DNA of 64,000 nucleotides from an uncultured Verrucomicrobiota bacterium (GCA_903821635.1 CAIJLV010000183.1:97542-161541); one strand, 5' to 3'; shown: positions 28,192-37,755, counted from the stretch's first letter. The notes: generated by a model not told the origin, from the sequence alone. Program-made: numbers and translations.

Positions 28192-28422
28192 CTACGGGCC
28201 CACTTCCGGGCGGTCGAGGTGCGGGCCGGAGTCGAGTTCGTCAAAGCCCTCGAAATCACCGGGGCGAAGTTCGCGGCTGATCTTGTGCTCCTCGCCAAAC
28301 CACTGGCCGAGGTCGATGAGCCGGCAGCGGGGGCTGCAAAAGGGGCCCGTGGGGGTCGCCAACCACGCGCCGCGTTCGCGGCAGCGGGGGCACTTGACCA
28401 GCAGGGTGGTGAGCTCGCTCAT
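28192..28422 (-). CDS. yacG: DNA gyrase inhibitor YacG (zinc-binding)
   Basis: CPRC...PFCSPRCRLIDLGQW is the YacG signature. Confidence 0.8.
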   Translation of the reverse strand: MSELTTLLVKCPRCRERGAWLATPTGPFCSPRCRLIDLGQWFGEEHKISRELRPGDFEGFDELDSGPHLDRPEVGP

Positions 28423-28616
28423 GAGGTCAACGCTGGCGGCCACCGGAGTTCCGGCCCGCGGTAAATTCCCACATCGTTTTCACGGCGTGAAGTTAAGCCC
28501 GCCGCGGCTGCGGTCCATTCCTAGCTTGAGCCCGGGCCGAAAGTTTCCCGGGAGCAATCCGCTGCGGGCATTTCGCCGCGGGCCGCCGGGTGCCCCGGCA
28601 AACACGGCGGGCCGTT

Positions 28617-29432
28617 TCATGGCTGCCACACGCGGACCAACGGAGTGGGACGGCGCTCCCAACCCGGCGGCACCGGCTCGTCGGCGCGCAGATAACGCCG
28701 GCTTCGTGCCTCGCCCGGTTGGTGGCATTCGTAGAGGGCCACCGGCTGCGCCGTCGGCGGGGCACTGAAGTTGGGGCGGCGTGTCAGTTCCAGGGCGCCG
28801 CCCTCCGTTTCGTCCGTGCGCTGCCAGCGACCGGTCCAGCCAGTCGCCGTGTCGGTCAGCCGGAGTTGGTAGGTGTCGCTGAGGTAGCGGACTTCCAGCG
28901 TGAGTTGCCGGGCTTGCACCCAACCCGACTCAACGAAGGCAAAGCGGTAGTCGGTATTCTGGTCGAAGCGGGCCGCCACCCGTTCGCCGTCCACGGCCAG
29001 CTCCAGCGCCAGTCGATGGGTCGCCCCATCGGCGCGGGTGGCGGCGGCGGCCCAATGGCCGGCAAGCCGTAGGGCGTTGGTTTCGCCCTCGGCGGGCAAC
29101 CCGAAGAAGAGCGGTTCCGAAAAATTCTCCTGGCCCCGCCCCGGCAGGCGGCGCAATTCGGTGAACCCCGTTTTCTCCACCGCAAACACGGGCACCAAGC
29201 CGGGCGGCCACGCTGCCGAAACCACGGCTTGAAACGTCGCGGTCGTCCCCGGCTCCAAGCCTACCTTGAACGGCCCGCCCGCGGGGTCCGCAGTGGCGCG
29301 GTGAAAGGGTGTGAGCGCCGGGGCCGTTGACTCGGCCGCCAGCGGATGGGCAACCCATCCGCCCACGAGTGCGACCCAAAGAAGGACCACCCGCCGACGC
29401 AGGGCGGGGCGGGGATTTCCAGGGCTGGTCAT
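28617..29432 (-). CDS. Secreted hypothetical protein
   Basis: ATG at 29432 gives a signal-like N-terminus (RRRVVLLWVALVGGWVAHPLAA). The longer ORF-track N-terminus is Arg/Pro-rich and looks non-coding. Confidence 0.5.
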   Translation of the reverse strand: MTSPGNPRPALRRRVVLLWVALVGGWVAHPLAAESTAPALTPFHRATADPAGGPFKVGLEPGTTATFQAVVSAAWPPGLVPVFAVEKTGFTELRRLPGRGQENFSEPLFFGLPAEGETNALRLAGHWAAAATRADGATHRLALELAVDGERVAARFDQNTDYRFAFVESGWVQARQLTLEVRYLSDTYQLRLTDTATGWTGRWQRTDETEGGALELTRRPNFSAPPTAQPVALYECHQPGEARSRRYLRADEPVPPGWERRPTPLVRVWQP

Positions 29433-29629
29433 CGCTTGAGCGAGTTCGCGGGCTTCCGGTTCGCAGGGCTGGGGGACGGCCACCGCGGGAGGCTGAGCGT
29501 CAATCCGGCCGACGCGACCCTTTTCCAATCCAGCCAGAGCGGGGCACGCCGCGCCGCAACTGTTTCCGGGCTGAGTCACCGGGGGCGAGGGCACGGGGCG
29601 GTGGCCGGGAAGAGCTTTGCCGGCAATGG

Positions 29630-30379
29630 TTACGGTTCGGCGGACTGGAAAGTCCGCCCTCCAGAGGTTACGGCCATTTGTTCCAGTTGACCGCCAGCGC
29701 ACAGGGGGGCGTTGCGGTGCCGCATCATTACTTCCGCGGCGCCGACTTCCACCTCGGTGTAGCTGACGGTCGCCGCGTCGTCGCGGTGCATGCAGGTGGA
29801 AAAGGGCCCGCATTCCGGTGCATGCGAGCCGTGAAGACGCCGGAGCCATTCCGTGGAACCGGCGTCGGGTTCCCGTCGTCGCCGTTGGTATTCCGCCGCG
29901 CGGAGGCGTTGGGCGTTGGGCTCGTCGAGACCGGACGAAAGCCACTGGCCGGCAGACCACGGATGGTGGTTGACCGACAGTTCATGCAGGTTCCAGCGCC
30001 ATTCGAGAACCCGCTGTTCCGGCTCGATGAAGCCGACTAGCCGAAACGGATTCATCCGCGACAAGGGCAGGCCCGCCACCTGCGGTTCTGCTTCGGAACC
30101 GGAACCGCAGGCCCGCACAGCCAGCACCACCTCGCCCCGCGAAACGGTTGGCAACGGTGCGCGGTCGGAGATCGCATACCAGTTGATCAGCGCGAAGCAG
30201 ACCCCGCGGTCGTTGACCGAGATCCACGTTCCACCACCCGGTTCCCGCGGATGCATGACGGTCCGTTCCCCAAGGACGAACTGCGCCGGCGGCAGGCCGG
30301 TGACCCGGGACCGTTGTTCGTCGCGGTTCATACCCAGCACGAATCCGCGGCGACGGGGCCAGAAGGTGACGGAACACAT
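29630..30379 (-). CDS. NRDE family protein (TANGO2 homologue)
   Basis: MCSVTFWPRRRGFVLGMNRDE... has the N-terminal Cys2 and NRDE motif of PF05742. Confidence 0.85.
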   Translation of the reverse strand: MCSVTFWPRRRGFVLGMNRDEQRSRVTGLPPAQFVLGERTVMHPREPGGGTWISVNDRGVCFALINWYAISDRAPLPTVSRGEVVLAVRACGSGSEAEPQVAGLPLSRMNPFRLVGFIEPEQRVLEWRWNLHELSVNHHPWSAGQWLSSGLDEPNAQRLRAAEYQRRRREPDAGSTEWLRRLHGSHAPECGPFSTCMHRDDAATVSYTEVEVGAAEVMMRHRNAPLCAGGQLEQMAVTSGGRTFQSAEP

Positions 30380-30421
30380 GTTGGCGGCAGGATTGGAGGC
30401 CGGTGGACCGCGGTCGAGCGG

Positions 30422-30667
30422 TCAGTCGGCGGGCGGATAGGTGGCGAACTGCCGGTTCGCAGCGCGCCAGATGCGGAGCAGTTGGCGCAGGGGCGTGGGC
30501 ACGGCGCCCAGAGCCCGGTTGGCGGCGCCGATGGCGAAGACGAGCTCCCACTGGCGGAAGAGGGTTCGATAAGCGGACCCTAGGGAATTGCGCGCATCGT
30601 AGATGCTTGTGGCTTCGGCGCTGGCGCCATTGAGTTCGAGGATCTGGAAATTGCGCCCGGCCCGCAG
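30422..30667 (-). other. Out-of-frame continuation encoding the missing ATP-grasp C-terminus (frameshift at about 30666-30668)
   Basis: My own translation of the adjacent minus frame gives LRAGRNFQILELNGASAEATSIYDARNSLGSAYRTLFRQWELVFAIGAANRALGAVPTPLRQLLRIWRAANRQFATYPPAD*, with TGA at 30422-30424. It contains the ATP-grasp E-x-N (ELN) Mg-binding motif. Restoring one C (GACGAC-C-TGCGG) joins the frames. Confidence 0.7.
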
Positions 30668-32079
30668 TCGTCCTCCGAGCTGAAGCGCACGTCGTAGCGG
30701 CCGATGAAAAAGCCAGGCAGGCGTCGGGAAATCGCGTCAATCTGCGCTTCCAGTTCTGGGGTTCGCAGCCGGGCCCCGTCGCGGAAGATACAGCCTTGGG
30801 CGTGGTTGCCCGCTTCGACCAACCGCAACGTGGCGCCGGCTGGGAGCACTTCTTGGCGGCGCGAGGCAAAGCGGGCGAGGTAGCGGTCAGCCACGAACCG
30901 GGCGCGCTCATCGCGCCAGATGAGTTGTTCGACCGTGTGGACGCCGTCGCCGGTAAGGACCGGGAAAATCTTCTCCGTGAGCGCAAAGATCTGGCCACGG
31001 GCCTCGTGGGGAAAGCGGTAGTAGAAGATGCCCACTTCGAACGGCCCGGGCACATACCGCTGCACGACGATGGGCGCGGAACTGCCGCGTAGGTAGTCGG
31101 CTGCGTCGGCCTCTGATCGTATCAATTTCACGCCGAGCCCGCGTTGTCCAAGGTCGGGCTTGAGGATGAAGGGGTAGGCGATGGCGTGGGTCACCGACAG
31201 GCGCCGCAGTTCCGACAGGCGGTCGGCGCTTTCCGTCGCCAGGAGCCAGGCTTCCGCCGTGAATTCAGGGCTGGTCCGCGACAGCTCCTTCAGGGTTTCG
31301 AACTTGGATTCCCCGACCAGTCCGCCCGTGGTGATACCGGGATTGGCGGTCGTCGGGACCGTGAAGCCGCGATAGCGAATGGCGAGCTGAAGGTAACGGA
31401 ACGCTACCGGGAGATAAAAAATCGTCGCGGGCCAGAATTCCCAGCGCCGCCAACGTCCCAAGGCAGCCCGGAAGCGTTGGCGTCCGCCGGGTGAAAACCA
31501 GCGCGGAAGGAAGCGCAGCAGGCCCAAGCCGACTGCCAGCGCGACCAGCAGCCACCACGCGCTGTGGTTCCAGCGTTGCAAAGCCTCGGCGAGCGCGGTC
31601 CCCAACCCTCGGGCGAGGCCGAAGATTCCGAGCGTCCAGACCGCGACTGCGAGCCCCGTGATCAGGGCGAAACGTCCAAATGGCAGGCGCAGGAACCCGG
31701 CGGCGAGGTAAGTGGGCAGGCGGGTGCCGGGAAGCAGTCGGCTCGTGACCAGCAGCCAGCCGCCTTGATTCGCGAACCAAGCTTCGCTGCGGGCCACGGC
31801 TTCGGCGGATACGAATCGTTGAACCCAGGTCAGCTTGAGCGCCCGGCGTCCGCCGCTGCGGGCCGCGAGGTAAAGGAGCAGGTCGCCGGTCCAGATGCCG
31901 AGGAAACAGCCGAGGAAACCCGCGGTCCACGACAGTTTGCCGGCCGCCGCCAACAGCGCGGCCGACACGGTGGGAACGTCTTCTTGGATGAAGGTCGCCA
32001 AACCCAGCGCGACGGCCTGCCCGGCTGGGGGCAGGCCGAGCAACGTGGCGCTGAGGTCGCTGCCAGACAGGGCCATCAT
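30580..32079 (-). CDS. DedA/VTT membrane domain fused to an ATP-grasp domain (reading frame as encoded; premature end, see next feature)
   Basis: The N-terminal about 200 aa is multi-TM DedA-like (FIQEDVPTV...GIWTGDLLLYLAARSGG). The C-terminal part is ATP-grasp-like (YPFILKPDLGQRGLGVKLI..., VVQRYVPG..EVGIFYY). Confidence 0.75.
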   Translation of the reverse strand: MMALSGSDLSATLLGLPPAGQAVALGLATFIQEDVPTVSAALLAAAGKLSWTAGFLGCFLGIWTGDLLLYLAARSGGRRALKLTWVQRFVSAEAVARSEAWFANQGGWLLVTSRLLPGTRLPTYLAAGFLRLPFGRFALITGLAVAVWTLGIFGLARGLGTALAEALQRWNHSAWWLLVALAVGLGLLRFLPRWFSPGGRQRFRAALGRWRRWEFWPATIFYLPVAFRYLQLAIRYRGFTVPTTANPGITTGGLVGESKFETLKELSRTSPEFTAEAWLLATESADRLSELRRLSVTHAIAYPFILKPDLGQRGLGVKLIRSEADAADYLRGSSAPIVVQRYVPGPFEVGIFYYRFPHEARGQIFALTEKIFPVLTGDGVHTVEQLIWRDERARFVADRYLARFASRRQEVLPAGATLRLVEAGNHAQGCIFRDGARLRTPELEAQIDAISRRLPGFFIGRYDVRFSSEDDCGPGAISRSSNSMAPAPKPQASTMRAIP

Positions 32080-32663
32080 GCGGCGAAGGAGAGGGACTGG
32101 GCCGCCAACGCCTGCTGGTGGGCGAGCGTGGCCGGCGCGAGCCCGAAGTTCGCGGGCAGTTGGGCATTCAGGAACCGCCCAATCACCGCGATCAAAGCGA
32201 AATGGTGGATGCCATGCGCGGCGGCATAGACCAGTTCCCGCCCCAGCGTGGACAGGGTTGCCGGCGAGTCGCCGCCGTAGCCGATTTGGCAGCGGACCAG
32301 AACGGGCTGCGCCAACTGGTCGGCGGTTAGTTGCCCGAGCCGATGGCGCAGCGCGCGGGTGAGTTCCCGCGCCAGTTGCGGTGACTGTTCGAGGCGGGGG
32401 TCGCGGTCGCGGTTGTCATAGTCAATGAAGCCGGCTTCGAGCCCGCGCAGGAGGCTGGAGAAGTGGTCGAGGAAGTGGCGATAGTGGCCGCCCATTGACG
32501 CGTTGAAGGCGAGGGCGACCGGTTGCCGGTAGGTTTCGGCGTCGAGCTGGAGCAGGAGGTTTTCGCCTTGTTCCAGCAGTTCCGTCACGGCGGTCACGAG
32601 CCGGGCGGAGGCGGTGGTGGGTTCGTAAAGCCCTTCGGTGTCGGCGATGGAATCAGCAGTCAT
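32076..32663 (-). CDS. DinB-like (DinB_2 superfamily) metal-dependent protein
   Basis: His triad context HYRHFLDH ... HGIHHFALI. Its stop overlaps the downstream start (ATGA at 32076-32079). Confidence 0.7.
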   Translation of the reverse strand: MTADSIADTEGLYEPTTASARLVTAVTELLEQGENLLLQLDAETYRQPVALAFNASMGGHYRHFLDHFSSLLRGLEAGFIDYDNRDRDPRLEQSPQLARELTRALRHRLGQLTADQLAQPVLVRCQIGYGGDSPATLSTLGRELVYAAAHGIHHFALIAVIGRFLNAQLPANFGLAPATLAHQQALAAQSLSFAA

Positions 32664-32680
32664 GGGGCGCGATTGCGGGT

Positions 32681-33097
32681 TCAGCGGTCACATGGGTTGG
32701 CGAACCGGCTGCCGATGAGCGGCAGTTCGGTGCGGCGCAGCCACACCACGAGGGCGGCGGCGGCGAATACGGTCACTGCGAGTGCGAACAGTAGGCCGCC
32801 GTCGTCCTGCACCACAAGGCCCAGCTTGGTCAGGTGCCCCAGCAGGGCGCCGCCCATAAGCCCTAGCGAAAGTAGGCCGCCGCCGCCGGCCCAACGGGGA
32901 GTCAGCAGCAGGCCGACGGCGACAAGTTCGAGCAAGCCGGTTAGGAGGCGTCCCCAGGGCTCCAGGCCGAGGGTGGAGAAGATGAACTTGGATTCCGGCG
33001 CGCCGGTGAACTTGAAGAACAAGGTCTGGGCGAGAATGGACGCCGCCAAGATCTGGGCGATCCAACTGACGGTCCGGTGGGTTTTGCAGGGGTGCAT
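32681..33097 (-). CDS. DoxX family membrane protein
   Basis: 138 aa with four hydrophobic helices; ...AQTLFFKFTGAPESKFIF..LLELVAVGLLL... ATG at 33097 verified. Confidence 0.8.
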   Translation of the reverse strand: MHPCKTHRTVSWIAQILAASILAQTLFFKFTGAPESKFIFSTLGLEPWGRLLTGLLELVAVGLLLTPRWAGGGGLLSLGLMGGALLGHLTKLGLVVQDDGGLLFALAVTVFAAAALVVWLRRTELPLIGSRFANPCDR

Positions 33098-33117
33098 GGC
33101 GCGGGTTGGGACGGGGA

Positions 33118-34080
33118 TTATTCGTTGCTGAGCTGCTTCCAGTGCGCGTCGGCTTTGGCTGTCTGGGCCGGTTCGTCTTGGTCCCAGTCCTTGCGGGCAT
33201 TGCCCCACAGCCCCTTGTAAAAGAGCAATAGCCGGCCGTTGGTTAGCTTGAAATTACCGGGGTCGATTTCGACCTTCTCCCCCTTGGCCATCGCGGTGGC
33301 GCACCAACCTCCGTAGGTTGGGACGTATTTGTCCGGTGAAGCGAGGAACTGCTTCCGGTTCGCGGCCGAGGCAAACCGATAATTTACGCCGCGGTGTGCG
33401 GCGGTGAACTCGGCTTGGCCTTGGTTCGGTTGGCCGGCGGTGAAGTAGGCCACGGGATCGTAGCCCTGCAGCGCGAGTTGGCCGGCGGCTAGGTTGTAGT
33501 GAGCCAGCGGGGCGGGAGTGCGCTTCGCCGCGGTCGCCTTGAGTTCGGCAAGTTTGGCGACGAGCAGGTCGAAGCCGAATCGGTCGCCGTTGTTTTTGCC
33601 CACATGGCGGAAGACCTCCTGGCCGGCTGGGTCCAACAGCACGAGGGCGGGGAAGTGGACCGACTGACCGTGGAATGGGTAGCCGTCGGGAATCGCGAAT
33701 GCCTTCGCCAAGGTCGCGTCGGCGTCGCGGTAGAGGGTGACTTCCTTCGCGGCCGGTTTGCCCAACTTGTCCGCCCACGACTTGATTTCGTCGGCGCTGT
33801 CCGGCTTGAGGAAGACGGACACGACCTCCGGCAGAGTTTCGCCGCGTTGGGCATAGTCGCGGGTATGGCGCAGGCAGAGGGGGCATTCCGTCTTCAGCAG
33901 GAAGTGGAGCGCGACGTATTTCCCCTTCGCCTCGGCCAAGCGGAATTTCCGGCCGTCGGCCGGCGCTTCGACCGTGAAGTCAGTCGGGGCCGCGAAAAGA
34001 TTCCACGCGCCGGCAAGAGCGCACAGGAAGGGGAGCGGCGAGCGGCGAAAGGGCATGGGCTTGGGCGAAAGAGTCGTCAT
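33118..34080 (-). CDS. Secreted thioredoxin-fold (redoxin/AhpC-TSA-like, CPLC) protein fused to a YHS domain
   Basis: GKYVALHFLLKTECPLCLRH is the redoxin part. The C-terminal GYDPVAYF...YRFASAANRKQFLASPDKYVPTYGGWCA is the YHS part. An alternative start exists at 34056. Confidence 0.8.
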   Translation of the reverse strand: MTTLSPKPMPFRRSPLPFLCALAGAWNLFAAPTDFTVEAPADGRKFRLAEAKGKYVALHFLLKTECPLCLRHTRDYAQRGETLPEVVSVFLKPDSADEIKSWADKLGKPAAKEVTLYRDADATLAKAFAIPDGYPFHGQSVHFPALVLLDPAGQEVFRHVGKNNGDRFGFDLLVAKLAELKATAAKRTPAPLAHYNLAAGQLALQGYDPVAYFTAGQPNQGQAEFTAAHRGVNYRFASAANRKQFLASPDKYVPTYGGWCATAMAKGEKVEIDPGNFKLTNGRLLLFYKGLWGNARKDWDQDEPAQTAKADAHWKQLSNE

Positions 34081-34200
34081 TCACGCTGGCCGTTCCGAAG
34101 TCCGGTTCGGGGCCAGCACCCGTGAGAGGACGGAGCGGGGCGAGCTATTCCCGGAATCCTGAAAAATCGGTTGGGAATAATTTTAGCCCCCCGGACTCTC

Positions 34201-34746
34201 ATGAGCGTGCCGATGTCGGATTCAGCCGCGATGGTGGACGAGCTCTACGGGCCGCTTTACCGCTTTGCACTGAGCCTGGCCGGGACGCCGGCGGTGGCGA
34301 GCGATCTCACGCAGGAGGCCTTCTTCCGCTGGTTCAAGCAGGGCGGTGAGTTGCGGGACCCGGCCAAGGTCAAGAGCTGGCTGTTCACGACGCTCTACCG
34401 CGAGTTCCTCCGCACGAGCCGCCAGTCCGCCCGCTTCCCGCACCACGAATTGGACGAGGTGGAATCCGAACTGCCGGCCGTGGCCCCGGAGGAGTTGGAC
34501 CAACTCGACGGGGCGCTGGTGATGGCCGCGTTGCAGCAGGTTGAGGAAACCTACCGCGCGCCGCTGAGCCTGTTTTATCTCGAAGGATTTTCCTACGCCC
34601 AGATTGCCGAGGCGCTTGATCTTCCCGCCGGCACCGTCATGTCGCGGCTGTCGCGGGGCCGCGACCAATTACGACGACACCTGCGGAACCGACTCACGGC
34701 GGAGGAGCAGAAGCTGATTCCTTTTGCCGCGGCGAAGGCCCGTTAA
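34201..34746 (+). CDS. ECF (sigma-70 family) RNA polymerase sigma factor
   Basis: Region 2 (LYRFALSLAG..DLTQEAFFRW) and region 4 (YREFL...LFYLEGFSYAQIAEALDLPAGTVMSRLSRGR). Confidence 0.85.
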   Translation: MSVPMSDSAAMVDELYGPLYRFALSLAGTPAVASDLTQEAFFRWFKQGGELRDPAKVKSWLFTTLYREFLRTSRQSARFPHHELDEVESELPAVAPEELDQLDGALVMAALQQVEETYRAPLSLFYLEGFSYAQIAEALDLPAGTVMSRLSRGRDQLRRHLRNRLTAEEQKLIPFAAAKAR

Positions 34747-34765
34747 CCCCATTCCCATTCCTCCC

Positions 34766-35539
34766 ATGAACCAAAACCAAGCCCAGTTGATCCTCGGCGC
34801 CTGCCCGCCGGGGCCGTGGCCGCACGACGATCCGCAGGTGGCGGAGGCGCTCCGGTTGGCCGAGTCGGATCCTGCGTTGGCCCGGTGGCTCGTGGAGACT
34901 CGCGGCTTTGACACCGCGGTCGCGGCGAAACTGCGCGTGGTGGCGCCGCCGGCCGACTTGCGCGATGCGATTTTCGCGGGTCGCCGGGTCACTGCCGCAG
35001 CCGGTCCGCGGGCCTTCTGGCGGCGGCCTGCGCTGCTGGCCTGGGCGGCGCTGCTGGTCCTGCTGGTGGGGATTTCCACTGTCTGGCTGGGTTCGCCACG
35101 AACCGGCGCGGCGGCCTTCCGGCAGGACGTGGCGCGGTTCCTCACGGAGGATTGGCAGCACGATTTCGATTTTCCGGAAGCCAGTTTCCCCAAAATCTGC
35201 GAGTGGGCGGGCCGGCAGCCCGGGAGCATCGAGTTGCGGGCCCCCGCGCAACTGGCGGGCAGTGCAACCTACGGCTGCAAAATCTTCGAGTGGCGTGGGC
35301 AGAAAGCGACGCTGGTGTGTTTCGTTACCAAGGCGGAGGGCGAAGTGATTCATGTCGTCAGTGTGGACCGCTCCAATCTTCCCGCGGCGGATCGTTCAGT
35401 GCCGTCGGACGCGCCGCAGTTTGCCCGGGCCGGCGAGTGGAACACCGCCCTGTGGTCACAAGGCCCGCGAATGTATGTCGCCTTGACCACGATGAACACC
35501 GAGGGGCTGGCCCGCTACGTAAAGCCGGCCGCGCTCTGA
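34766..35539 (+). CDS. Putative anti-sigma factor (single-pass membrane protein)
   Basis: Immediately downstream of the ECF sigma gene. One TM (ALLAWAALLVLLVGISTVWL). No zinc-finger HxxxCxxC motif. Confidence 0.6.
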   Translation: MNQNQAQLILGACPPGPWPHDDPQVAEALRLAESDPALARWLVETRGFDTAVAAKLRVVAPPADLRDAIFAGRRVTAAAGPRAFWRRPALLAWAALLVLLVGISTVWLGSPRTGAAAFRQDVARFLTEDWQHDFDFPEASFPKICEWAGRQPGSIELRAPAQLAGSATYGCKIFEWRGQKATLVCFVTKAEGEVIHVVSVDRSNLPAADRSVPSDAPQFARAGEWNTALWSQGPRMYVALTTMNTEGLARYVKPAAL

Positions 35540-35580: not shown

Positions 35581-35835
35581 ATGAGACCGAGTGAAAAGTC
35601 CCCCGGAAAAGCCGTCCCGAATCCCGCCTTCTTGGCCGCCCTGACCGTGGGTTTGGCGGCCGTGGGGGCGGGCTGCACCGTGCCCGTTCACGCGCAACGC
35701 CTGCTGGCCAAGCCCGGCATGCAGTTTTCCGGTTCCGCGGCGTTGGGCGCCCCGTCGAAGCTGCTTCCCCAAGTGGAGTCCGGCGCCGCGACGTCGGGCG
35801 GGGGCCAAGCGGCCGGTTGTTCGTCCTGCCGCTGA
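35581..35835 (+). CDS. DUF4266-like small lipoprotein
   Basis: Lipobox GAGC, followed by ...QRLLAKPGMQF...SGGGQAAGCSSCR, the Gly-rich Cys-containing tail typical of DUF4266. The ORF track hides it inside a longer frame. Confidence 0.6.
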   Translation: MRPSEKSPGKAVPNPAFLAALTVGLAAVGAGCTVPVHAQRLLAKPGMQFSGSAALGAPSKLLPQVESGAATSGGGQAAGCSSCR

Positions 35836-35853: not shown

Positions 35854-36969
35854 ATGAAAACCCGGGCAATCATGTTGGCGCTGCTGGGCCTGACGGCGGG
35901 ATCCGTTCAGGGCAAGGACGCGTCCCAAGCGGTCGTGGAGCCGCGGGTCAGCACGCTCGTTTCACAGCAGTTCGAGGCCGACTTTGAGGCCCTCGTTGCG
36001 GACGACATCCAACTGCTCCAAGGCGGCCTCGCCTACGGCCAGAAGCACGGCCGGTTCGAGTGGACCGCCAGCCTCGCCTACCAAACCTTCGGGCTCGATT
36101 ACCGGCCGGCGCCCTTCGATTTCCTAGGCGTTGACCGCGCGCTAAACGAAGGCCGCATCGCCGCGCAAGCGAATGGCCGGTTTCGTTGGGGTCAGTCGGT
36201 CTCCCTGCTCGGCAGTGCGGGCGTTTACGATGGGTTCGCCAACTACCGCAGCGTCTGGCTGAACGAATACTTCCGGCAGCAATTCTCCACGCTGCCCGAA
36301 TACGTGCCGGCCAGTCCCCGCGGCGAAAACGTGGCCGCCGGAGTGCGTTGGGAATACCTGCCGGCCTCGGCCTTCGTCGAGGGCACGGTCAGCTATCTGC
36401 ACGACGAGATCGCGCCGGGCTACGAGATCGACTTCGCGGGGCTCCGGCGTGACCGGCATCACCTGGACACGCTGGCCTACCAGCTCGCGTTCGAGAACGT
36501 GCTGTCGCGGCGGGTCCGCGTGCGGAACGAATTTCGCCTGACCGACACCACCGAGCGTGAATTGCGTTACGCCTATCAGGGTTCGCTCAACATCGCCCTC
36601 GGGGAACGGTGGGTGGCCCGGCTGTTCGGCGGCTACACCGGGGAGGCGCCCACGTTTGCGGCGCACTACTACGGCGGCGCCCTCGACTTTGAACCGGCCG
36701 AGGGTTGGATCCTGGGCGTCTTCGGCCGGCGTTACGTGGATTCCGGCGAGATTGAGAATTCGCTCTTCTCGTCCGCCGCGCCGGGACTGTCGTCGTGGCA
36801 GGCCGGGCTGAGCCTGCGGCGCTCGTGGGGCGTGCATTCGTTCCGCCTTTCCGCCGCCCCTTACCGGACCCGCTTCGAGCCGGCCGGCCTTGGCACCGCG
36901 TTCTTCCAGAATCTTTATCGGGGCCGCGATTGGGCCCTGGTGCAGTTGGCCTATGCGGCCGATTTCTGA
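35854..36969 (+). CDS. DUF3570-like outer-membrane beta-barrel protein
   Basis: Signal peptide, alternating beta-strand pattern and a terminal aromatic residue (..LAYAADF). DUF4266 is its usual neighbour. Confidence 0.65.
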   Translation: MKTRAIMLALLGLTAGSVQGKDASQAVVEPRVSTLVSQQFEADFEALVADDIQLLQGGLAYGQKHGRFEWTASLAYQTFGLDYRPAPFDFLGVDRALNEGRIAAQANGRFRWGQSVSLLGSAGVYDGFANYRSVWLNEYFRQQFSTLPEYVPASPRGENVAAGVRWEYLPASAFVEGTVSYLHDEIAPGYEIDFAGLRRDRHHLDTLAYQLAFENVLSRRVRVRNEFRLTDTTERELRYAYQGSLNIALGERWVARLFGGYTGEAPTFAAHYYGGALDFEPAEGWILGVFGRRYVDSGEIENSLFSSAAPGLSSWQAGLSLRRSWGVHSFRLSAAPYRTRFEPAGLGTAFFQNLYRGRDWALVQLAYAADF

Positions 36970-36975
36970 GAACCC

Positions 36976-37755
36976 ATGAAACCCCTGCTTCAACTCTCCC
37001 TCGCCGGGCTGCTGTTCCTGCTGCGTGCCCAAGGCGCCACCTACCGGGTCGGTGACACGGTGGAAAACTTCTCGCTGGTCAACCGGGCTACCGGCCAGCC
37101 GATGGCGCTCACGGATTTCGCGGGCAAGATCGTATTGCTCGACTGGTTCGCGTGGTGGTGCCCGTTCTGCCAGGCCGCCGCGCCGCAGTTGCTGGATGGG
37201 GTGCATGAACACTACTCAGCCCGCGGCGGCAATCCGGCCGGCATCCCCGTGGTCAGCGTCGGCGTGAATTTGCAGGCCAACCAGGAGGCGCAGACGCAGA
37301 ACTTCGTCAACCGGGCGGAATACGAGTTCGTCTGGCAGGACTTCAACCGTGCGGTGGCGAACCGGTTTTTTCCGACCGGCGGCCAGCCGCTGTTCGCCAT
37401 CATCAATGGCATCACCAACTCACCCAGCCACCGGCCGTGGGAGCTGATCTATGCCCGTCAGGGTTACGGCCAGACTACTTTTCCCGTCGCCGATTTCCGG
37501 GCGGCGATCGACGCCGTGCAGGCGTCCGTGGTGCCGGCGGTGCCACCGACGCTGACCCTGGGCTCCGGGCCGGCGGCCAACGGCGTGACGCTTTCCGTTC
37601 GGGGCCGGGCCGGCGTGGCCTATCGGGTGGAATCGTCTCCGGACCTCTTTGGTTGGAAGCTGGAACAGGAAGTGACCCTGAGTTCCGAGACGGAGTCGGT
37701 GCCGGTTCAACTGCCGTCGCAGGAGACGCGATTTTTCCGGGTCGTGGCGCCGTGA
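36976..37755 (+). CDS. TlpA-like thioredoxin-fold disulfide reductase with C-terminal beta-sandwich
   Basis: GKIVLLDWFAWWCPFCQAAAP carries the CxxC motif. A signal peptide is present. Confidence 0.8.
   Translation: MKPLLQLSLAGLLFLLRAQGATYRVGDTVENFSLVNRATGQPMALTDFAGKIVLLDWFAWWCPFCQAAAPQLLDGVHEHYSARGGNPAGIPVVSVGVNLQANQEAQTQNFVNRAEYEFVWQDFNRAVANRFFPTGGQPLFAIINGITNSPSHRPWELIYARQGYGQTTFPVADFRAAIDAVQASVVPAVPPTLTLGSGPAANGVTLSVRGRAGVAYRVESSPDLFGWKLEQEVTLSSETESVPVQLPSQETRFFRVVAP

Follow-up and report, generated by a model that had tools for sequence, protein, structure and literature searches.

Two described systems are among those closest to the genes analyzed here. In MprF, which serves envelope stress adaptation, a cytoplasmic head-group enzyme is fused to a polytopic lipid-translocating domain, and among the ornithine lipids made by OlsB/OlsA (or OlsF) the known tailoring enzymes (OlsC, OlsD, OlsE and OlsG) are hydroxylases and methyltransferases. 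To our knowledge, no ATP-grasp ligase and no DedA, TANGO2-type or DinB-type protein has been described in the OlsB/OlsA pathway. Here we analyzed a stretch of 64,000 nucleotides from an uncultured Verrucomicrobiota bacterium (GCA_903821635.1 CAIJLV010000183.1:97542-161541, the whole of it referred to as the window), in which five open reading frames (ORFs) follow each other head to tail on the minus strand at positions 29630-34080. They encode a secreted redoxin-YHS protein (gene 1), a DoxX-like membrane protein (gene 2), a DinB-fold protein (gene 3), a DedA/VTT membrane domain fused to an ATP-grasp ligase (gene 4, DedA::ATP-grasp) and an NRDE/TANGO2 protein (gene 5), and they stand back to back with genes for an extracytoplasmic function (ECF) sigma factor and a putative anti-sigma factor. 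We are highly confident that the operon represents a real, conserved and ECF-controlled module. On balance, and by a modest measure, we also consider it probable that the products of genes 3 to 5 tailor N-acyl-amino-acid membrane lipids of the OlsB/OlsA type at the cytoplasmic face of the membrane, which would make this a system for stress-controlled modification of membrane-lipid head groups by a synthase-transporter fusion. The operon structure, its conservation, the domain fusions, the folds, the co-occurrence across genomes and the promoter motifs come from the analysis itself, while we infer the substrate, the reaction and the inducing stress. The exact chemistry is put forward with less confidence.

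The fusion protein shares with MprF the joining of a cytoplasmic head-group enzyme to a polytopic lipid-translocating domain as well as the setting in envelope stress adaptation, and in both cases a partner alpha/beta-hydrolase is often present, fused onto the protein itself in many relatives of gene 4. The likeness is architectural only: no MprF flippase or synthase domain gave a Pfam or NCBIfam match in any of the five proteins, and the two systems are not homologous. A DedA/VTT domain stands here in place of the MprF flippase, the ligase is of the ATP-grasp type (working with ATP through an acyl-phosphate) whereas the MprF transferase depends on aminoacyl-tRNA, and an aminolipid, not phosphatidylglycerol, is the likely substrate. 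The relation to OlsB/OlsA is one of association, the module lying beside OlsB/OlsA-like genes in many loci and being nearly confined to carriers of OlsB/OlsF-type genes, although the pair of the window organism is located on another contig. The closest structural counterparts of the ligase domain are the G domain of cyanophycin synthetase, GshAB and Ddl (12-19% identity, with sequence-search E-values of about 0.1), but none of these enzymes is known to be membrane-anchored or fused to a transporter domain. A full-text search of a literature library returned no account of this gene composition, no DedA::ATP-grasp protein, and no link of aminolipids with TANGO2 or with ATP-grasp enzymes or of OlsB with DedA, in line with the initial annotation of this DNA, which knew of no described system with this composition. 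The enzyme families that meet here were not previously connected, and the chemistry assigned to them is a proposal by analogy.

The gene neighborhood proved to be strongly conserved. Full-length relatives of the gene 4 protein, read across a frameshift that is discussed below, number more than 2,000 and measure about 553 aa, and a sensitive search with an intact orthologue recovered 1,230 cluster representatives at E ≤ 1e-30. On contigs carrying relatives of 88%, 70%, 64% and 63% identity the order redoxin/YHS, DoxX, DinB, fusion, NRDE is kept. A wider set of 80 loci was drawn from species-representative genomes of Verrucomicrobiota, Acidobacteriota and Planctomycetota, together with Proteobacteria-labelled and other metagenome-assembled genomes (MAGs), and its ORFs were scored with hidden Markov models built from the window and its orthologues. 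Across these loci, DinB adjoins the fusion almost everywhere, and NRDE is found immediately before or after it. Partner counts were restricted to loci with enough flanking sequence (37 from Verrucomicrobiota and 11 from Acidobacteriota). DinB is near the fusion in 37/37 Verrucomicrobial loci, always as the gene directly upstream, and in 10/11 loci of Acidobacteriota; the corresponding counts are 35/37 and 6/11 for NRDE, 28/37 and 7/11 for the DoxX-like gene, 28/37 and 1/11 for YHS/redoxin, and 19/37 and 4/11 for an ECF sigma gene. The module is conserved in at least four named phyla. Its core consists of DinB, NRDE and DedA::ATP-grasp, with DoxX as a frequent fourth member and the secreted thiol protein as a mainly Verrucomicrobial addition. 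Since the same order recurs in dozens of independent loci, the arrangement goes beyond chance.

In the window, the ORF coordinates confirm the five same-strand genes and the intergenic gaps of 20, 17, −4 (an ATGA overlap) and 42 nucleotides reported earlier, the last of them valid only when gene 4 is read across its frameshift. Elsewhere the genes are joined even more closely. The fusion family comes in two sizes, one of about 540 aa and one of about 870 aa with an N-terminal alpha/beta-hydrolase; hydrolase, VTT and ATP-grasp form one chain in many representative proteins, and in a protein of one further organism a single chain of 1,130 aa has TANGO2 in addition to these three. Loci of Planctomycetota, of Blastocatellia and of some other MAGs begin with OlsB and OlsA, followed by DinB, NRDE and the long fusion.

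The tie between these genes is also visible at the level of whole genomes. In a sample of 301 genomes from the phylum of the window organism, 39 carry the fusion and 262 do not. NRDE homologues (E ≤ 1e-10) were found in 26/39 fusion-positive and 0/262 fusion-negative genomes (p 4e-28), usually on the contig of the fusion and a few kb away from it; the tests ignore phylogenetic relatedness, so that this and the following p-values are optimistic, but the nesting itself is clear. PF13444, the family of OlsB/OlsF-type N-acyltransferases, was present in 36/39 fusion-positive and 146/262 fusion-negative genomes (p 5e-6). The association is much sharper in Acidobacteriota (201 genomes), in which OlsB-type genes are less common and PF13444 occurs in 24/25 genomes with the fusion and 22/176 without it (odds ratio 168, p 2e-17), and where most pairs of OlsB-type and fusion genes share a contig and lie within about 4 kb of each other. 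Within 6 kb of the fusion gene, an OlsB-like gene was found in 23 loci and an OlsA-like gene in 18, mostly on the same strand. Counted by phylum, OlsB-like genes are near the fusion in 9/11 loci of Acidobacteriota, and OlsA-like genes in 7/11 of these and 4/37 Verrucomicrobial loci. The best NCBIfam matches of the clustered acyltransferases are the OlsB and OlsA equivalog models (E 1e-35 to 1e-41, below the cut-offs).

That the product of gene 4 combines a DedA/VTT domain with an ATP-grasp ligase, as initially proposed, is supported by sequence and by structure prediction. Residues 39-153 match VTT_dom (PF09335; E 4e-14, 53.5 bits against a cut-off of 33.9), and in an alignment of 18 diverse members the DedA-type residues E33, D34, G61, G65, D66, R114 and R120 are invariant, which we take to be the equivalents of essential residues of YqjA. 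In the same alignment, K307, E348, R461, D463, R465, E482 and N484 of the ligase part are invariant; they include the catalytic lysine (K307) and the Mg-binding E-x-N motif (E482/N484), which in the window lies beyond the frameshift, in another frame, and is intact in the orthologues. The ligase falls outside the characterized families: no Pfam or NCBIfam model matched it above cut-off (sub-threshold matches were to TTL, RimK, ATP-grasp_3 and cyanophycin synthetase only), and the best PDB entry found for the fusion protein by sequence had an E-value of about 0.1. An AlphaFold2 model of an intact orthologue of 88% identity (predicted local distance difference test 87.9, predicted template-modeling score 0.69) consists of a helical membrane domain at the N-terminus and an ATP-grasp fold at the C-terminus. 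Searched with Foldseek, the model matched the G domain of cyanophycin synthetase first (E 1.6e-8), followed by the ATP-grasp domain of GshAB and many D-Ala-D-Ala and D-Ala-D-Lac ligases; matches to cyanophycin synthetase, GshAB, Ddl and CPS range from E 1.6e-8 to 1e-5, and VanA is also among the strong ones. Cyanophycin synthetase, GshAB and Ddl activate the alpha-carboxylate of an amino acid or peptide and then add an amino acid. These data agree with the earlier suggestion that the substrate of a ligase carried on a DedA domain is embedded in the membrane.

The assignment of gene 5 to the NRDE family likewise stood. Its product matches Pfam TANGO2 (PF05742; E 1.5e-6, 29 bits, cut-off 22.6), and M1, C2 and N18-R19-D20-E21 are invariant in an alignment of the family. 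The AlphaFold2 model of the window protein itself (predicted local distance difference test 86.7, predicted template-modeling score 0.86) has a predicted Cys-Ntn (N-terminal nucleophile) hydrolase fold, and crystal structures of human TANGO2 (8sv7/9bwa) are its top Foldseek matches (E 1e-9, template-modeling scores 0.55-0.61). With human TANGO2, its best structural match, the protein shares the Pfam family, the N-terminal Met-Cys and the NRDE motif; it differs in sequence (17-18% identity) and in having a gene that accompanies that of a membrane ligase and in some cases forms one chain with it. We know of no demonstrated catalytic activity for either human TANGO2 or a bacterial NRDE protein. 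Below these in the Foldseek ranking come acyl-CoA:isopenicillin-N acyltransferase, bile salt hydrolases, penicillin V acylase and N-acylethanolamine acid amidase (NAAA), which are Cys-Ntn enzymes for the cleavage or transfer of acyl-amide bonds. In human TANGO2, acyl-CoA is bound in the pocket that contains the NRDE motif (PMC11867700).

The initial annotation's DinB-like protein is a member of DinB_2 (PF12867), the window copy scoring exactly at the cut-off (24.8 bits) and the orthologue at locus L001 scoring 29.7 bits. It belongs to a subfamily of its own, defined in a 12-sequence alignment by the invariant motifs GxHxRH, DYDxRxR and HxxHH, and the invariant histidines H60, H63, H150, H153 and H154 form a candidate metal site. 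A profile of the family against the PDB found only a DinB-like protein without known function (E 0.66). No signal peptides were found on the DinB and NRDE proteins, and the ATP-grasp enzyme needs ATP, which together place the trio on the cytoplasmic side of the membrane.

The remaining two proteins were only partly as first described. The fusion of a redoxin with a YHS domain is real in the window, where gene 1 matches AhpC-TSA (E 6e-11, 42.7 bits against a cut-off of 26), shows the CPLC motif in translation and carries a C-terminal domain that scores 126.2 bits (cut-off 70) with NCBIfam NF041384, 'YHS domain-containing (seleno)protein'. As the usual partner it did not hold: upstream of DoxX in the relatives, the YHS-like Cys protein stands alone in 35 loci, redoxin stands alone in 6, and the two are fused in 4, the window included. 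The cysteine of the GG[WY]C motif in the YHS-like domain is invariant in 39/39 relatives and presumably corresponds to the selenocysteine position of the selenoprotein members. The DoxX label holds for the orthologues, of which 11/12 match DoxX_2 (PF13564, best E 6.5e-8) and 4/12 match DoxX (PF07681), but the window copy has no Pfam match at E 0.01. The motifs QTLFFKF and EPWGR are strongly conserved in these DoxX-like proteins. A thiol relay through DoxX was considered and rejected, since the N- and C-terminal cysteines of close relatives are not kept across phyla.

The control of the module by an ECF sigma factor was suggested by the divergent sigma operon and is strengthened by matched promoters. 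The product of the sigma gene matches Sigma70_r2 (E 6e-11), Sigma70_r4_2 (E 3e-15) and Sigma70_ECF (E 6.5e-5), thus containing regions 2 and 4 without region 3; the gene behind it, which also follows the sigma gene at the related loci L001 and L002, encodes a protein with a weak match to DUF3379 (E 2.6e-4, below cut-off). Gene 1 and the sigma gene are separated by 150 bp that contain two mirrored promoter-like sites, one facing each operon (Table 1). The sites are the only matches in the window (none in 100 shuffles), and a looser pattern found no more than these two in the 4.66-Mb genome, although the pattern was derived from the two sites themselves and their uniqueness is no independent test. 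At L001 the −35-like and −10-like elements are kept and the spacers differ, which makes a reasonable phylogenetic footprint. The position of the mirror site places the sigma start downstream of the TTG at 34171 in the ORF track, a start that would overlap the predicted promoter, and probably at the ATG at 34231; the resulting protein of 171 aa has the length annotated at L001.

At more distant Verrucomicrobial loci both the ECF sigma genes and the motif are different ones. The motif there, TGTAAGGA-N14-CGAC, was found at 101 sites in loci totalling 1.11 Mb, where about 4 are expected, and 94/101 sites have identical spacing. The gene directly after it most often encodes YHS/redoxin (25), DoxX (16), DinB (9), SDR (5), a small membrane protein (4), the sigma factor (3), OlsB (3) or MsrAB (3). 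Two near-complete Limisphaerales genomes have the motif almost nowhere but at the module locus, with 3/5 sites within 2.4 kb in one and 6/7 within 18 kb in the other, where it also precedes the sigma gene. This near-confinement suggests that in these organisms the module and its redox neighbors may be the main output of a dedicated ECF sigma factor. We take the motif to resemble the sigma-X promoter class of Bacillus subtilis, in which sigma-X (promoter TGTAAC-N17-CGAC) controls dlt and pssA-psd. Regulons of the sigma-X type resemble the present case in having an ECF sigma factor with a matching −35/−10-type motif before genes for membrane or envelope composition; the target genes are different, and so is the motif of the window lineage (GGGAATA ... 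CCGKMCTCTC), the TGTAAGG motif of the relatives being absent from the window and its genome. A scan of positions 28400-34400 for sigma-70 promoters and intrinsic terminators was uninformative, giving no promoter-like sites and fewer terminator-like sites than shuffled sequence.

Taken as a mechanism, these observations suggest two units under one stress promoter: a redox pair in the periplasm and membrane (YHS-redoxin, DoxX) and a lipid-tailoring trio at the cytoplasmic face (DinB, DedA::ATP-grasp, NRDE). All five genes would be transcribed as a single operon from the ECF-sigma-type promoter that lies back to back with that of the sigma/anti-sigma genes. The trio, usually with the DoxX-like protein and with the DinB-fold protein as a putative metalloprotein, would tailor OlsBA-type lipids in the inner leaflet. 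If it works as its structural relatives do, the ATP-grasp domain may convert a carboxylate, most plausibly the free alpha-carboxylate of the lipid head group, to an acyl-phosphate, to which an amine or amino acid would then be ligated, while the DedA domain, as in MprF, could hold, present or flip the lipid. The predicted fold of the NRDE protein would suit a Cys-Ntn amidase or transacylase acting on an N-acyl amide in editing, turnover or maturation, and the hydrolase of the long fusions could follow the same make-and-trim logic as MprF and its hydrolases. The secreted redoxin-YHS Cys protein, perhaps together with DoxX, would be a co-regulated thiol-redox partner on the periplasmic or membrane side and probably stands outside the chemical pathway of the trio. 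A more specific version, which we offer tentatively, is that bacterial TANGO2/NRDE is an obligate partner of DedA::ATP-grasp and, with DinB, builds and edits a class of so far unseen aminolipids with an extended head group, deployed in the envelope by a dedicated ECF sigma factor; in these, an amide bond would join an amino acid or amine to the carboxylate of the OlsBA-type lipid.

Several points weigh against aminolipid tailoring under ECF control. The window contains neither OlsB nor OlsA, and the only olsB-olsA pair of the genome, two adjacent and overlapping genes, is on a different contig (C166:58050-59802, minus strand). An OlsB gene is nearby in only 6/37 Verrucomicrobial loci, and with OlsB/OlsF-type genes present in 60% of the phylum the co-occurrence is weak evidence there, related genomes not being independent samples. 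Among named NCBIfam families, the DedA domain scores best with UptA, a transporter of undecaprenyl-phosphate (42 bits, E 8e-11, cut-off 250). The proposed mechanism leaves the invariably linked DinB protein unexplained, the promoter sites were deduced from sequence alone, and in the assembly the ligase gene is frameshifted.

The frameshift raises the possibility that the ligase gene is a true pseudogene and the module inactive in the window organism, whatever its role elsewhere. The assembled frame stops at 30580, while the neighboring frame continues via "...FQILELNGASAE...", which holds the E-x-N motif, to a stop at 30422, and a DNA alignment with the close orthologues L001 and L008 shows the window to be one base short near 30667. 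The deletion costs the open frame the E-x-N motif and the C-terminal 84 residues, and orthologues of 86-88% identity run uninterrupted through 552 aa. Yet the tail past the frameshift is identical to the 88%-identical orthologue at 76/81 residues and shows no further damage, and the four neighboring genes are all intact. The interruption is thus an assembly error or a very recent inactivation; since the genome is a draft of 237 contigs at 87% completeness, an assembly error is at least as likely, and we regard a true pseudogene as possible though the less favored case. A broader doubt concerns the module as a whole, which could be a set of stress genes with a shared promoter and no shared pathway, the members of the trio having different substrates. 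The accessory genes vary by lineage, and within the cluster a separate ECF-type promoter often precedes YHS/redoxin and DoxX. For the core trio, however, such a reading does not agree with the single chain of TANGO2, hydrolase, VTT and ATP-grasp, the overlapping stop and start codons and the strict nesting of NRDE in fusion-bearing genomes. We consider biochemically unrelated genes improbable, and the reading is plausible only for the link between the YHS-redoxin protein and the trio.

Two other pathways would keep the genes together and change the substrate. The initial annotation had cast the operon as a thiol-lipid stress module. Worked out as a pathway for a thiol-lipid or low-molecular-weight thiol, this would have the ATP-grasp enzyme ligate cysteine or a gamma-Glu-Cys-like unit to a membrane acceptor, DinB act as a thiol S-transferase or C-S bond enzyme, NRDE trim the product, comparable to EgtA/EgtB/EgtC in ergothioneine synthesis, and redoxin-YHS and DoxX recycle the thiol. 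The DinB fold includes the bacillithiol and mycothiol S-transferases and the N-domain of EgtB, the ATP-grasp domain of GshAB is among the best structural matches, a CoaB-like gene of the phosphopantothenate-cysteine-ligase type lies inside the module at about 5 loci, and secreted Cys proteins, DUF1223, MsrAB and TlpA-like genes occur at the same locus and promoters. However, no conserved member is a thiol-making enzyme or specific for cysteine or sulfur, the redoxin domain, the least conserved element, is present in only about 10 loci, and Pfam finds only a DinB domain in the DinB protein, whereas EgtB also requires an FGE-type domain. The membrane moreover separates the redox proteins in the periplasm from the trio in the cytoplasm, and it is OlsB/OlsA rather than thiol enzymes that track the core across phyla. 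The thiol-lipid idea has no specific support from these data, and we consider a thiol pathway unlikely. Somewhat more doubtful still is a role for the trio in modifying a polyprenyl-phosphate-linked cell-wall precursor, with DedA binding undecaprenyl-phosphate-linked intermediates, a Ddl-like ATP-grasp enzyme adding an amino acid to the peptide stem of lipid II or to another lipid-linked glycan, and NRDE acting as an amidase on that stem. Envelope remodeling under ECF control is common, and the match to UptA and the strong structural matches to Ddl and VanA would suit such a role, but at this distance from the cut-off the UptA score indicates general DedA membership only. No murein or glycosyltransferase genes were found among the conserved neighbors, the NRDE fold matches amidases of fatty-acyl and steroid-acyl substrates and proteins that bind acyl-CoA, not peptidoglycan amidases, and the association with OlsB/OlsA, both by adjacency and genome-wide, points elsewhere.

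The preferred reading, tailoring of OlsB/OlsA-type aminolipids, brings together in one tight module three families with open questions: DedA/VTT, whose lipid cargo is at issue, TANGO2, a human disease protein of disputed role, and stand-alone DinB proteins, which are mostly without a known function. The nesting of NRDE and the tracking of OlsB turn it into a concrete, testable hypothesis, and the dedicated ECF promoter offers a handle for inducing the module experimentally. If true, it would give TANGO2 a first enzymatic role and substrate class (N-acyl amide lipids) and DedA/VTT a defined lipid cargo, introduce a head-group chemistry that proceeds via ATP-grasp rather than tRNA, and add a stress-regulated route of membrane remodeling in Verrucomicrobiota, Acidobacteriota and Planctomycetota, which are abundant in soil and water.

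Table 1. Features of the five-gene operon and the divergent sigma operon (positions counted from the first nucleotide of the window).
Feature	Position	Strand	Remarks
Gene 5, NRDE/TANGO2, 249 aa	29630-30379	-	N-terminal Met-Cys and NRDE motif; Pfam TANGO2
Gene 4, DedA/VTT + ATP-grasp, 552 aa read through	30422-32079	-	open frame 30580-32079 = 499 aa
Gene 3, cytoplasmic DinB-fold protein, 195 aa	32076-32663	-	DinB_2
Gene 2, DoxX-like small polytopic membrane protein, 138 aa	32681-33097	-	start taken at internal ATG at 33097
Gene 1, secreted redoxin + YHS, 320 aa	33118-34080	-	signal peptide; AhpC/TSA-type redoxin with CPLC; YHS-like domain with GGWC
Promoter-like site GGGAATA-N12-CCGTCCTCTC	34124-34152	-	faces the five-gene operon; 44 nucleotides upstream of the gene 1 ATG
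Mirror promoter-like site GGGAATA-N11-CCGGACTCTC	34173-34200	+	faces the sigma/anti-sigma operon
ECF sigma factor, divergent	34231-34746	+	start inferred
Putative single-pass anti-sigma factor	34724-35539	+	true start may be slightly downstream

Around these features, a secreted ORF of 277 aa (28617-29450, minus strand), about 180 nucleotides downstream of NRDE, was considered as a sixth gene. It has no Pfam or family match and no counterpart after NRDE at L001, and it probably lies outside the operon. Behind the anti-sigma gene, the labels DUF4266 and DUF3570 for the genes at 35581-35835 and 35854-36969 were not retained, the window proteins having no Pfam match at E 0.01 and the product of the second no NCBIfam match either; a weak hint of DUF4266 was seen in the counterpart at L005 only. 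The next gene in line (36976-37755) encodes a TlpA/ResA-like thioredoxin-fold protein.

Two Limisphaerales genomes, G506 (L088:7460-7530, L088:14234, L089:3507) and G504 (L090:4198-6538), have the ECF-type motif TGTAAGG-N15-CGAC before two further operons. One of these comprises an SDR, a glycogen-debranching-like enzyme, an MGH1/GH63-like hydrolase and a MIP channel; from the other come a GMC oxidoreductase, DUF1622, a ferric-reductase/Rieske protein and a small membrane protein. Compatible-solute or sugar metabolism may therefore also be touched by the same sigma factor.

Other genes recur near the fusion. DUF1223 was found in 14/37 Verrucomicrobial loci and 0/11 loci of Acidobacteriota, an MsrQ-like ferric-reductase/Rieske gene in 10/37 and 6/11, MsrAB in 8/37 and 1/11, and SDR in 6/37 and 6/11. 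At L086:2935-4941 and 18 other loci, the MsrQ-like ferric-reductase membrane domain is joined to a Rieske 2Fe-2S domain, behind which about 270 C-terminal residues match no family and include a Cys-rich motif; a conserved small membrane protein precedes this gene. Five loci from MAGs labelled Heliomicrobium/Heliobacteriaceae (L059, L062, L063, L082 and L083) carry the long hydrolase-DedA-ATP-grasp protein with OlsB, OlsA, DinB and NRDE in a Blastocatellia-like order, and the labels of these bins may merit a check. A stand-alone CoaB-like gene (PF04127, DFP) was seen at the Verrucomicrobial locus L003:5129-5806 and also at L009, L012, L013 and L042 of the same phylum, twice directly behind the ECF-type motif; it is of interest in view of the link of TANGO2 to acyl-CoA and CoA metabolism.

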